The notes beneath the pieces are model-generated. The model was not told where the DNA came from. It ran no database searches and saw only the letters and a program-made list of their open reading frames with translations. The position numbers and the translations under genes were made by a program. From Escherichia phage PE37: DNA of 64,000 nt. Position 1 is the stretch's first letter; each line of letters opens with the position of its first letter. Positions 15,432 through 19,593 of the stretch are shown piece after piece. The stretch lies in the sequence record NC_054929.1, one strand, 5' to 3'.

Positions 15432-15674
15432 ATGACCAAGCGTAAAGAATATATGGAGGCTGCTGAAAAGGCAGTCCGTGAATTAGCAATAGCTTATTAT
15501 AATGAACATGGTAAATTTCCTGATAGATACAGCGTGCTTAAATCTGCTTTAACTCGTTCATATAAAAATATGCTATCAGAAGTAAGTGATATTATATACA
15601 AACATAAAGAACAAACGGGCCAAAGTCTTGATTACGACGAGACTTTTAAACAAGTACTAGGAATTAAGGAATAA
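15432..15674 (+). CDS. hypothetical protein (80 aa)
   Basis: Track ORF. Confidence 0.55.
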
Positions 15675-15675
15675 T

Positions 15676-15939
15676 ATGTTTAAAGTATATGGTTATGATA
15701 GCAACATTCACAAATGTGTGTATTGCGATAATGCAAAACGTCTTTTGACCGTGAAGAAACAGCCGTTTGAATTTATCAACATTATGCCGGAAAAAGGTGT
15801 TTTTGATGATGAGAAAATCGCTGAGCTTCTGACTAAACTAGGTCGTGATACTCAAATCGGCTTGACAATGCCCCAGGTATTTGCTCCTGATGGAAGTCAT
15901 ATTGGTGGATTTGACCAACTGCGAGAATATTTTAAATGA
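15676..15939 (+). CDS. nrdC: thioredoxin/glutaredoxin NrdC
   Basis: 87 aa, CVYC active site, matches recalled T4 NrdC. Confidence 0.9.
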   Translation: MFKVYGYDSNIHKCVYCDNAKRLLTVKKQPFEFINIMPEKGVFDDEKIAELLTKLGRDTQIGLTMPQVFAPDGSHIGGFDQLREYFK

Positions 15940-16151
15940 TGCTCGAAGGAACTGACTATATTCACGATTACCGCGGAAGCGCGGTATATGTAGGTGATGA
16001 AGTTGCAGTTTATTATGGGTATGGAACTTTGATGACAGCAAAGGTTATTCAAATTAAAAATAATCGTGCTAAACTCGAAGTTTATTATTCTAATGATGAA
16101 AAGTCTATTTCTAAGTGGAAATACGGCGATTGTATGGTTAAATTGGGGTAA
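15936..16151 (+). CDS. hypothetical protein (71 aa)
   Basis: Track ORF, ATGA overlap. Confidence 0.5.
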   Translation: MMLEGTDYIHDYRGSAVYVGDEVAVYYGYGTLMTAKVIQIKNNRAKLEVYYSNDEKSISKWKYGDCMVKLG

Positions 16152-16153
16152 AT

Positions 16154-16324
16154 ATGATTTACGATATTAATGTATCACGAGCTCCGTCAATGGTTACTAT
16201 TCCAGCCGAAGAACTAGAACGTCTTCAGAAAATTGAAGAACTTCTTTGGGAAATTGAATGTGCCCTGCCATCAGGACTAGAATCCTGGATTGATGATGAA
16301 GAACTTAATAAATTGCGAAATTAA
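16154..16324 (+). CDS. hypothetical acidic small protein (56 aa)
   Basis: Hand-called ORF filling a gap; below track cut-off. Confidence 0.4.
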   Translation: MIYDINVSRAPSMVTIPAEELERLQKIEELLWEIECALPSGLESWIDDEELNKLRN

Positions 16325-16334
16325 TTGGTGAAAA

Positions 16335-16655
16335 ATGACTATTGAAAATAAATTAGATGTTGATGCAGTTCTGAGCGAAATCATTGAAGACCATGATGCA
16401 TTTTCGGAAAACTATGATTTCGATTTTTCCGATTATCTTAAACCTGTCGAAATAGAAGACTGGGTGCAAGATGGTAAATGTCAATATCGTCAGTGTGTTT
16501 ACTTTAGTCCAAAACATAATGTACATGTGGCTGTAAATGAATCTCGGTTAGGTTCTTATCATTCTGACTGGTATTATGCAGTTCCGACTGTTGAACTAGT
16601 CGAGCCCCATGAACGTGTAGTAACTCAGACAATACGAGAATGGATTACGCTATAA
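16335..16655 (+). CDS. hypothetical acidic protein (106 aa)
   Basis: Track ORF; very acidic N-terminal half. Confidence 0.55.
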   Translation: MTIENKLDVDAVLSEIIEDHDAFSENYDFDFSDYLKPVEIEDWVQDGKCQYRQCVYFSPKHNVHVAVNESRLGSYHSDWYYAVPTVELVEPHERVVTQTIREWITL

Positions 16656-16795
16656 AACCTTGGTGGGCGGCTAGATGGGAAACTGTAGAGCCAGAGCCGG
16701 AAGAACCGGTTTACACTGATGAAGAAACAATATATAATGAACCAACGATAAATGACTTAATTGATATGGAGATGGGACATGATTACAGTAGATAA
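16640..16795 (+). CDS. possible small acidic protein (51 aa)
   Basis: Hand-called ORF overlapping neighbours at both ends; weak support. Confidence 0.25.
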   Translation: MDYAIKPWWAARWETVEPEPEEPVYTDEETIYNEPTINDLIDMEMGHDYSR

Positions 16796-17264
16796 GTGGT
16801 TTAGAATTAATCGTGCTGATACAGGGCTGTGTAATTACTGGCCGGAACTTAGTGCAGGTACTGTCTTTAAAGTTCGTGAACTTGCAAAAGAATGTGAAGA
16901 TGATATAGAGCCTGATACTGGAATTATTGAAATTGAACTTTCTGATGGAAAGATTATTAACATCTACGATAAGCCAATTACGTATTGGTGCTTGTGGAAT
17001 ACTGAATCAGTAGAAAATGGCGAAATTGAAGAAGTTGTAGAGAGAACTAATCAAGTTGTTCAGAAGCCTAAAGCTGATTTTCAAGGTGAACGTATTTCAT
17101 ACGCATTAGCTAAATTAGCTGCACAAGAAAATAACGATGGCTATGAAGGAAATTTGATGCAAGCTGCGGCAGAATATATTGAATGGCTTGAAACCCAAAT
17201 TTCTTTTTCTGACCAAAAGATTCGGCAATATAAGCGATTGAATCAAATGTTTTACAATACTTGA
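16779..17264 (+). CDS. pin: hypothetical protein (161 aa), possibly Pin (Lon protease inhibitor)
   Basis: Length and position immediately upstream of gene 49 match T4 pin; sequence identity not verified. Confidence 0.4.
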   Translation: MITVDKWFRINRADTGLCNYWPELSAGTVFKVRELAKECEDDIEPDTGIIEIELSDGKIINIYDKPITYWCLWNTESVENGEIEEVVERTNQVVQKPKADFQGERISYALAKLAAQENNDGYEGNLMQAAAEYIEWLETQISFSDQKIRQYKRLNQMFYNT

Positions 17265-17276
17265 AAATAATAAATA

Positions 17277-17300
17277 CCCTTATCTATTTAAGGTAAGGGT
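17277..17300 (+). terminator. possible hairpin terminator
   Basis: Imperfect inverted repeat acccttatc/ggtaagggt followed by ttatt. Confidence 0.3.
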
Positions 17301-17305
17301 TTATT

Positions 17306-17779
17306 ATGTTATTGACTGGCAAATTATATAAAGAAGAAAAACAGAAATTTTATGATGCACAAAATGGTAAATGTTTAATTTGCCAACGAGAACTAAATCC
17401 TGACGTTCAAGCTAATCATCTTGATCATGACCATGAATTAAATGGACCAAAAGCAGGAAAAGTACGTGGATTGCTCTGTAATCTCTGCAATGCCGCGGAA
17501 GGTCAAATGAAGCATAAATTTAATCGTTCTGGCTTAAAGGGACAAGGCGTTGATTATCTTGAATGGTTAGAAAATTTACTTACTTATTTAAAATCCGATT
17601 ACACCCAAAATAATATTCATCCTAACTTTGTTGGAGATAAATCAAAGGAATTTTCTCGTTTAGGAAAAGAGGAAATGATGGCTGAGATGCTTCAAAGAGG
17701 ATTTGAATATAATGAATCTGACACTAAAACACAATTAATAGCTTCATTTAAGAAGCAGCTTAGAAAGAGTTTAAAATGA
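17306..17779 (+). CDS. 49: endonuclease VII (Holliday junction resolvase)
   Basis: 157 aa, Cys-rich zinc site and HLDHDH motif; matches recalled T4 gp49. Confidence 0.9.
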   Translation: MLLTGKLYKEEKQKFYDAQNGKCLICQRELNPDVQANHLDHDHELNGPKAGKVRGLLCNLCNAAEGQMKHKFNRSGLKGQGVDYLEWLENLLTYLKSDYTQNNIHPNFVGDKSKEFSRLGKEEMMAEMLQRGFEYNESDTKTQLIASFKKQLRKSLK

Positions 17780-19593
17780 CAATTGAAAAAGAAATTGAAG
17801 GATTGATTCATAAAACTAATAAAGACCTTTTAAACGAGAATGCTAATAAAGATTCTCGTGTTTTTCCAACTCAACGGGACCTTATGGCTGGTATTGTGTC
17901 TAAACACATTGCCAAAAATATGGTCCCGTCTTTTATTATGAAAGCGCATGAAAGCGGAATTATTCATTTCCATGATATTGATTATTCCCCTGCTCTTCCA
18001 TTTACTAATTGCTGTTTAGTAGATTTAAAAGGAATGCTTGAGAACGGATTTAAGCTTGGTAATGCACAGATTGAAACTCCTAAATCAATTGGTGTTGCTA
18101 CTGCAATTATGGCACAAATTACTGCACAGGTTGCTTCCCATCAATACGGCGGAACGACTTTTGCTAATGTAGATAAAGTACTTTCTCCTTATGTTAAACG
18201 CACCTATGCAAAACATATTGAGGATGCAGAAAAATGGCAAATCGCTGATGCGTTGAATTATGCTCAATCTAAAACAGAAAAAGATGTATACGATGCATTC
18301 CAAGCTTATGAATATGAAGTAAATACTCTCTTTAGTTCAAACGGACAAACGCCTTTTGTAACAATTACATTTGGTACGGGAACTGACTGGACTGAACGAA
18401 TGATTCAGAAAGCAATTCTGAAAAATCGTATTAAAGGTCTCGGTCGTGATGGGATAACTCCTATTTTTCCTAAGCTTGTTATGTTCGTCGAAGAAGGCGT
18501 TAATCTTTACAAAGACGATCCGAATTACGACATTAAGCAACTTGCTCTAGAGTGCGCAAGCAAAAGGATGTATCCTGATATTATTTCAGCTAAGAACAAT
18601 AAAGCTATCACCGGCTCATCTATTCCTGTTTCTCCAATGGGTTGCCGCAGTTTCTTGAGTGTGTGGAAAGATTCAACCGGTAATGAAATTCTTGATGGAC
18701 GTAATAATCTCGGTGTTGTAACGCTGAATCTTCCTCGTATCGCATTAGATTCTTATATTGGAACACAGTTCAATGAACAGAAATTTATCGAATTGTTCAA
18801 TGAACGAATGGATTTATGTTTTGAAGCTTTGATGTGCAGAATTAGTTCCTTAAAAGGAGTTAAAGCGACTGTTGCTCCTATTCTTTACCAAGAAGGTGCA
18901 TTCGGGGTTCGTCTTAAACCTGATGACGATATAATTGAGTTATTTAAAAACGGCAGAAGTTCAGTGTCTCTAGGATACATTGGTATTCACGAATTGAATA
19001 TTCTTGTCGGTCGTGATATTGGACGAGAAATTTTAACTAAAATGAATGCTCATCTTAAACAGTGGACTGAAAGAACCGGTTTTGCTTTTAGTTTGTATTC
19101 TACACCTGCTGAAAACCTGTGCTATCGCTTCTGTAAACTTGATACTGAAAAATATGGAAGTGTAAAGGATGTTACTGATAAAGGCTGGTACACTAACAGT
19201 TTCCACGTTTCAGTAGAAGAAAATATCACTCCGTTTGAAAAGATTTCTCGCGAAGCACCATATCATTTCATTGCGACAGGTGGCCACATTTCTTATGTTG
19301 AACTTCCTGATATGAAAAATAACTTAAAAGGTCTTGAGGCTGTATGGGATTATGCCGCACAACATTTAGATTATTTTGGTGTTAATATGCCGGTAGATAA
19401 ATGTTTTACATGCGGAAGTACCCATGAAATGACTCCTACTGAAAACGGATTTGTTTGTTCTATTTGTGGAGAAACTGATCCTAAAAAGATGAACACAATA
19501 AGAAGAACATGTGGTTATTTGGGAAATCCGAACGAACGCGGATTTAATCTCGGTAAAAATAAAGAAATCATGCATAGGGTTAAACACCAATGA
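17776..19593 (+). CDS. nrdD: anaerobic ribonucleoside-triphosphate reductase NrdD
   Basis: 605 aa, C-terminal glycyl-radical region RRTCGYLG; uninterrupted (no intron). Confidence 0.95.
   Translation: MTIEKEIEGLIHKTNKDLLNENANKDSRVFPTQRDLMAGIVSKHIAKNMVPSFIMKAHESGIIHFHDIDYSPALPFTNCCLVDLKGMLENGFKLGNAQIETPKSIGVATAIMAQITAQVASHQYGGTTFANVDKVLSPYVKRTYAKHIEDAEKWQIADALNYAQSKTEKDVYDAFQAYEYEVNTLFSSNGQTPFVTITFGTGTDWTERMIQKAILKNRIKGLGRDGITPIFPKLVMFVEEGVNLYKDDPNYDIKQLALECASKRMYPDIISAKNNKAITGSSIPVSPMGCRSFLSVWKDSTGNEILDGRNNLGVVTLNLPRIALDSYIGTQFNEQKFIELFNERMDLCFEALMCRISSLKGVKATVAPILYQEGAFGVRLKPDDDIIELFKNGRSSVSLGYIGIHELNILVGRDIGREILTKMNAHLKQWTERTGFAFSLYSTPAENLCYRFCKLDTEKYGSVKDVTDKGWYTNSFHVSVEENITPFEKISREAPYHFIATGGHISYVELPDMKNNLKGLEAVWDYAAQHLDYFGVNMPVDKCFTCGSTHEMTPTENGFVCSICGETDPKKMNTIRRTCGYLGNPNERGFNLGKNKEIMHRVKHQ

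Follow-up and report, generated by a model that had tools for sequence, protein, structure and literature searches.

Genes 49.2 and 49.1 of a T4-like phage encode acidic proteins from a variable accessory block that may inhibit a host protein

T4 is the best-studied lytic phage; many of its small early genes are uncharacterized, and several have recently proved to be anti-defense factors. The closest described systems come from T7 and from the T4-like phages themselves. T7 gp5.9 is an accepted DNA mimic of RecBCD and MukBEF (PMC9836394, PMC7617805), and both gp5.9 and lambda Gam trigger OLD and are toxic in OLD+ cells (bioRxiv 10.64898/2026.07.10.737580). T6 escapes the P2 OLD defense by amplifying gp49.1-nrdC.1 (Chihara et al., Nat Commun 2026, PMC13096335). 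In that study, the protein called T6 ‘Gp49.2’ abolished OLD defense on its own, with residues M13, T15, and W32 being important, while T6 Gp49.1 had no effect on OLD (PMC13096335). PinA, from the same locus, is named as an inhibitor of the host Lon protease in Pfam and in phage records.

The window that we analyzed, a stretch of 64,000 nucleotides from Escherichia phage PE37 (NC_054929.1), carries two overlapping ORFs that an initial annotation had described as strongly acidic small proteins upstream of gene 49, and as possible DNA mimics. Both ORFs were found on the + strand at exactly the coordinates given, and the peptide quoted was correct (Table 1). They do lie upstream of gene 49, but not directly, as pin intervenes. 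Over 15600–17900, identity to the Tequatroviruses RB51, RB68, and AR1 is 99%, and the region bears the 49.2 and 49.1 annotations. Judged by sequence, the two ORFs are orthologues of T4 genes 49.2 and 49.1 in an RB51/PE37-like Tequatrovirus; both are already known genes. Their T4 counterparts (UniProt P07069 and P39490) have the same lengths, the same 16-nt overlap, and the same place upstream of pin and gene 49. We saw no difference of substance between T4 and the window in 49.2 and 49.1 themselves; the window, however, has a 71-aa and a 56-aa gene where T4 has 49.3. At the place equivalent to the hairpin that follows pin, the NBG2 record has an annotated terminator.

Table 1. Features of the locus between nrdC and nrdD, in window coordinates
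Feature	Position	Strand	Evidence
nrdC	15676-15939	+	
71-aa ORF	15936-16151	+	
56-aa acidic gene, orthologue of T6 ‘Gp49.2’ (OLD inhibitor)	16154-16324	+	87.5% identity to T6 EcT6_00080; M13, T15, and W32 kept
Gene 49.2, 106 aa	16335-16655	+	ORF; 94% identity to T4 49.2; phrog_2294, E = 2.4e-51
Gene 49.1, 51 aa	16640-16795	+	ORF; 98% identity to T4 49.1; phrog_2382, E = 1.8e-33
Overlap of 49.1 start codon and 49.2 stop codon, 16 nt, GAATGGATTACGCTATAA	16640-16655	+	
Promoter-like site within 49.1	16710-16738	+	TTTACA, 17 nt, TATAAT; 11/12 consensus matches
pin (PinA, host Lon protease inhibitor)	16779-17264	+	Pfam PF10465, E = 2.3e-48; RB51 annotation
Terminator-like hairpin between pin and gene 49, 10-bp stem then T-rich tail	17276-17300	+	
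Gene 49	17306-17779	+	
nrdD	17776-19593	+	

The published anti-OLD protein shares a name with one of the two genes, and we therefore compared the sequences. According to the T6 record, T6 ‘Gp49.2’ is a 64-aa annotated CDS (EcT6_00080); when read from an internal ATG, it is the orthologue of the 56-aa ORF in the window. The 106-aa ORF was rejected as the published anti-OLD protein: it has L13, E15, and S32 at the three positions, it is unrelated in sequence, and T6 is without the 106-aa gene. By sequence, then, the T6 anti-OLD ‘Gp49.2’ and T4 49.2 are different genes that clash in name, and the validated anti-defense gene lies just outside the two noted ORFs. The T6 Gp49.1 that was assayed against OLD is 84% identical to 49.1 in the window, and this negative result is the sole functional test that we found for either protein (PMC13096335).

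Some further observations concern the two genes upstream of 49.2. The 56-aa ORF gave a sub-threshold score against the T7 gp5.9 family PF25708 (20.3 bits, with a cut-off of 24.5; residues 13–31), and RefSeq records label it ‘antitoxin’. The 71-aa ORF, which matches DUF7205 (PF23835, E = 3e-11), is the same as T6 ‘Gp49.3’, a protein that left OLD unaffected. It has no detectable homologue in T4, where a 102-aa 49.3 occupies the position.

Across T4-like phages, the gene content of the block between nrdC and pin takes at least four forms, and the junctions coincide with gene boundaries or lie close to them. The window and RB51 carry the 71-aa gene, the 56-aa gene, 49.2, and 49.1, whereas in T4 the first two are replaced by 49.3, followed by 49.2 and 49.1. 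In T6, the block contains the 71-aa gene, the 56-aa gene, and a 49.1 that starts with a new N-terminus (MKNLISFGV); the 106-aa gene is absent. NBG2 has the 71-aa gene, a 102-aa version of 49.2, and 49.1, without the 56-aa gene. Two proteins related to NBG2 49.2 (P0002 and P0171) begin with MIYDVDAV, joined between MIYD and VDAV, and from these we infer the same hybrid N-terminus for NBG2 49.2. In T2, the match to 49.2 falls in two separate pieces, which may represent a split gene, and truncated variants of 49.2 exist elsewhere (P0008–P0010). Because 49.2 is absent from T6, is matched in two pieces in T2, occurs in truncated form, and sits in a varying block, these comparisons mark it as a dispensable accessory gene.

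Both 49.2 and 49.1 are real genes that are expressed in T4, based on low dN/dS, a conserved overlap, and detection of the T4 proteins. The dN/dS ratio was 0.13–0.16 for 49.2 and 0.18–0.50 for 49.1. The 49.1 start precedes the 49.2 stop by 16 nt (GAATGGnTnnnnnTnTAA) in 16 of 18 T4-like loci, even where protein identity falls to 54%, and by 22 nt in the other two. Given this persistence of the overlap across T4-like loci, translation of the two genes is probably coupled. In T4, the RNA of 49.2 and 49.1 is early, and mass spectrometry detected the protein of each gene, with gp49.2 assigned to the ‘middle’ protein class and gp49.1 to the ‘late’ class (PMC9697503 supplement). The initial annotation had made its proposal depend on the proteins being expressed, and for both T4 orthologues published proteomics answers this point. 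The promoter-like site inside 49.1 is placed to drive pin and resembles a strong promoter of the sigma-70 type; T6 has this stretch as well, and a promoter is annotated at the equivalent position in NBG2. Dual constraint may thus act on part of 49.1.

The charge calculations that the initial annotation had proposed, made here with EMBOSS pK values, bore out the strong acidity of both ORFs. gp49.2 (106 aa) has 21 D+E against 8 K+R, resulting in a pI of 4.23 and a charge of −11.9 at pH 7. As described earlier, the acidity is concentrated in its N-terminal half: residues 1–45 contain 14 D/E and 2 K/R, whereas residues 46–106 are near neutral (7 D/E, 6 K/R). The overlapping gp49.1 (51 aa) is likewise highly acidic, with 14 D+E against 3 K+R (pI 3.69; charge −10.8). 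When the 117 non-overlapping ORFs in the window were ranked by negative charge per residue, the 51-aa ORF came 1st and the 106-aa ORF 9th. Moreover, the 56-aa ORF, 49.2, 49.1, and pin form an uninterrupted series of four strongly acidic genes (p = 0.019 in a permutation test). However, acidic proteins are frequent here: in this genome, 22% of ORFs have a pI < 5, and 19% of ORFs of ≤130 aa have a pI < 4.6. Net charge per residue was −0.112 for gp49.2 and −0.211 for gp49.1, compared with −0.090 for Arn, −0.154 for gp5.9, and −0.231 for Ocr. Low pI and strong net negative charge, a trait of DNA mimics, were found in gp49.2 and gp49.1, and also in PinA and the anti-OLD protein. Since PinA and the anti-OLD protein are equally acidic and are not described as DNA mimics, charge alone does not separate mimics from other inhibitors at this locus.

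We then examined gp49.2 as a family. It matches phrog_2294 over its full length (residues 1–106), and PF26835 is precomputed on all its close homologues. The phrog_2294 match was its sole profile match, as gp49.2 gave nothing in our local copy of Pfam, in NCBIfam, or in PDB sequence searches, and literature searches found no relevant paper on T4 49.2, PF26835, or P07069. With the 49.2 family profile, a full HMMER search returned 209 cluster representatives (E ≤ 1e-3), which are mostly 90–105 aa in length, and the family occurs in ~600 phage records and many IMG/VR contigs. One 49.2-family gene lies in a Pseudomonas locus (L004), amid phage-like genes. From these matches, the family is widespread, and is found in many unrelated phages well beyond the T4-like ones. 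Many homologues sit among unrelated small accessory ORFs. Outside T4-like phages no partner gene is conserved; the neighbors of distant homologues vary, except for a recurring exonuclease.

Members of the family share a core of the form [DE][DE]G[DE]WxQ[DE]GKYQ ... SRSGSYH[TS]DWYY, and W43, K48, R71, G73, S74, D78, Y81, and V89 are each at least 90% conserved. Acidity is a family trait (96% of 141 members have a pI < 5; median charge −9.8), with conserved acidic columns at positions 30, 33, 39, 40, 42, and 46, and also at 78, 83, and 93. The most conserved residues of gp49.2, however, are W, K, R, G, S, D, and Y, and not an acidic array. The invariant W43, K48, R71, G73, S74, D78, and Y81 could have a structural role only, or could mark the place where a small ligand, and not a protein, binds. 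A zinc or redox site was considered and rejected, as homologues have Y, V, or A in place of C49 and C54.

The structure prediction that the initial annotation had called for gave a different outcome for each protein. The AlphaFold2 model of gp49.2, built from a 116-sequence alignment, reached a pLDDT of 86.7 and a pTM of 0.71. It has a helix (residues 6–19) and five strands, together with an acidic, aromatic linker that is placed with confidence; the acidic N-terminal helix and the linker are packed against the five-stranded sheet. In this model, gp49.2 is a small folded acidic alpha+beta domain, and the fold had no significant match to solved structures. By comparison, the model of gp49.1, from five sequences only, was of low confidence (pLDDT 65, pTM 0.20), with two short conserved helices at residues 8–15 and 37–45, and gp49.1 on its own is probably largely disordered. 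gp49.1 matches phrog_2382 over residues 1–51, has a precomputed Pfam entry (PF26863), and is confined to T4-like phages. In the alignment, two conserved motifs, KPW[WY]xARWETVEPE and YNEPTxN[DE]LxDxE, flank an acidic proline-rich linker of variable length.

Some members of the 49.2 family are longer than the T4-type protein. Additional sequence at the C- or N-terminus, or a much longer ORF around the family member, is seen in P0022 (120 aa), P0021 (237 aa), and L055 (3890–5446). Toward its C-terminus, P0022 has ‘IPKDELKRLRSIEKMV’, a tail that looks by eye like the 56-aa protein, although not significantly so. A fusion between the 49.2 core and the 56-aa or gp5.9-like motif was considered and rejected as unsupported (BLASTP E = 0.46, no PF25708 match). 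In the T7-like Vibrio phage JSF24/ICP3 (L058, 4899–5312) and in P0049, the homologue has an extra N-terminal cysteine-rich segment, CKHCGEYGCFGSC, that is not in the T4-type protein; this segment gave weak matches to 4Fe-4S families (E = 0.04).

The exonuclease recurs in T7-like phages. In T7 itself, gene 5.9 is located between 5.7 and the gene for the exonuclease. Five T7-like phages, namely Vibrio JSF24/ICP3, contig L042, Salmonella ST66, Erwinia Stepyanka, and Enterobacter vB_EclP_26, have a 49.2-like gene of 98–137 aa in this slot. Their genes run DNA polymerase, (5.3), 5.5, 5.7, 49.2-like gene, gene 6 exonuclease. The 49.2-like gene extends over the start of the exonuclease gene, just like 5.9 in T7. 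Membership of the ST66 protein in the 49.2 family was supported by an hhalign probability of 98.7% (E = 3.9e-16). In JSF24 and L042, none of the small ORFs between polymerase and exonuclease matched the gp5.9 Pfam family. Elsewhere among T7-like phages, the 49.2-like gene lies beside the exonuclease in contigs L028, L039, L044, and L049, with endonuclease I next to it in L039, and between gp2 and the gp2.5 SSB gene in L030, L052, and Pf17397_F_PD1. The 49.2 family and gp5.9 showed no profile similarity (hhalign probability 0.2%), and gp5.9 itself weakly matches only coiled-coil Pfam families. The shared slot is positional evidence, and does not prove a function shared with gp5.9.

How far do these results support DNA mimicry? 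Charge density, family-wide acidity, and the gene 5.9 slot fit the earlier proposal; homology does not, as neither ORF matched a family of the Ocr, ArdA, Arn, or gp5.9 class in Pfam, PHROGs, or NCBIfam. DNA mimicry by gp49.2 or gp49.1 is plausible but unproven, and the results support it in part at best. The more general idea, that these are small acidic early proteins directed against host proteins, fits the variable block, PinA, and the anti-OLD neighbor. In its classic form, the proposal would make both proteins anti-restriction mimics of the Ocr, ArdA, or Arn type, acting against host restriction enzymes. Their low pI, high D+E content, early expression in T4, and anti-defense surroundings agree with this, but PinA and the anti-OLD protein are equally acidic and are not described as mimics, and for gp49.1 no stable fold is predicted that could carry a DNA-like array. 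In addition, T4 already has Arn, according to its annotation. The modified DNA of T4 also counters restriction, and together with the absence of any anti-restriction family match in the three databases, this makes an anti-restriction role improbable. A narrower possibility is that gp49.2 is a functional analogue of T7 gp5.9, which would inhibit RecBCD, or a different enzyme with affinity for DNA or DNA ends such as MukBEF, by mimicking DNA. It would account for the occupation of the 5.9 slot in five T7-like lineages with the same overlap of the exonuclease start, and it is in line with the conserved acidic patch of gp49.2, with a charge density between those of Arn and gp5.9, and with the accepted mimicry by gp5.9 itself. 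We nevertheless regard it as rather unlikely, given that profile similarity is absent, that the predicted alpha+beta fold differs from the weak coiled-coil matches of gp5.9, and that the slot placement is not universal in T7-like phages.

Recurrent adjacency to an exonuclease suggests another role as the main rival, in which gp49.2 is not a host inhibitor but a partner or regulator of nucleases that the phage itself uses in recombination and replication. In at least seven divergent T7-like loci, its gene overlaps a gp6-type exonuclease gene or lies next to one; it has endonuclease I as a neighbor in L039, and it lies ~650 bp upstream of endonuclease VII in T4-like phages. However, T6 and some T4-like isolates have lost 49.2 or carry it in disrupted form, and its match in T2 falls in two pieces, while the nucleases are kept; T4-like phages have no gp6-type exonuclease beside 49.2; and many homologues are found among unrelated small accessory ORFs. 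A role with the phage nucleases therefore seems quite unlikely. Finally, phrog_2294, RefSeq, and many public records label gp49.2 homologues as ‘ribonucleotide reductase’ or ‘nucleotide reductase subunit C’. Apart from the labels, only the place of the gene between nrdC and nrdD in T4-like genomes speaks for a reductase component. Pfam, NCBIfam, and PDB sequence searches found no reductase or redoxin domain, the fold is unrelated, the two cysteines (C49 and C54) are not conserved, and homologues in T7-like and other phages lie away from nrd genes. With no supporting domain, fold, or conserved cysteine, we reject a reductase role for gp49.2, which is effectively refuted and has almost no chance of being correct. 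The label appears to be a propagated annotation error that spread from the position of the gene near nrd genes.

The explanation that we favor, tentatively and at a little less than even chance, is that 49.2 and 49.1 are an accessory pair that most likely inhibits a host protein by direct binding. The two genes form an early-transcribed and probably translationally coupled pair within the variable block between nrdC and pin. By analogy with their neighbors, PinA (which acts on Lon) and the 56-aa anti-OLD protein, inhibition would occur through direct one-to-one binding of the host protein, with the conserved acidic patch of gp49.2 (residues 30–46) binding a basic surface on the target. Because the 49.2 family occupies the gene 5.9 slot by the exonuclease in T7-like phages, a nucleic-acid enzyme of the host, for example RecBCD, is the best single guess for this target. 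A point against this explanation is that gp2 already protects DNA ends in T4-like phages. The analysis shows that the genes are real, expressed, and conserved, and it shows the fold class of gp49.2, the acidity of its family, and the gene order; that the proteins inhibit a host protein, what class of target this would be, and whether gp49.2 and gp49.1 cooperate are inferences.

Several points can be regarded as settled: the reductase label on 49.2 is unsupported, the names used in T4 and T6 clash, and the 49.2 family reaches well beyond T4-like phages. The gene 5.9 slot provides a specific hypothesis, and if it is true, gp49.2 would represent a new fold among inhibitors of RecBCD and nucleases. 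Such a reading would also explain why 49.2 is adjacent to an OLD inhibitor. Since RecBCD inhibitors trigger OLD, a RecBCD-inhibiting gp49.2 beside an anti-OLD gene would, speculatively, make functional sense. Taken to its full extent, the gp49.2 family would be a widespread and unrecognized class of inhibitors of RecBCD or DNA-end enzymes, equivalent to gp5.9 and lambda Gam but with a different fold, and in RB51/PE37-type phages it would form an inhibitor and sensor-blocker pair with the adjacent anti-OLD gene. We consider this extended version unlikely.

Compared with the known systems, gp49.2 and gp49.1 resemble each in part. They are comparable to T7 Ocr and T4 Arn in net negative charge per residue and in early expression, but show no homology to them, and the most conserved residues of the 49.2 family are not acidic. 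The T6 ‘Gp49.2’ comes from the same locus as the 106-aa protein of the window, is also small and acidic, and has the same published name, but is a different protein. PinA (PF10465), whose gene is adjacent to 49.1, is similarly acidic (pI 4.2) and is a described one-to-one inhibitor of a host enzyme; it differs from gp49.2 and gp49.1 in its unrelated sequence, its larger size (161 aa), and its known target, Lon. Like T7 gp5.9 (PF25708), gp49.2 is small, acidic, and non-essential, and its family replaces gp5.9 in five T7-like phages. In contrast to gp5.9, gp49.2 is twice the size, has no sequence or profile similarity to it, and is predicted to form an alpha+beta domain rather than a short helical dimer.
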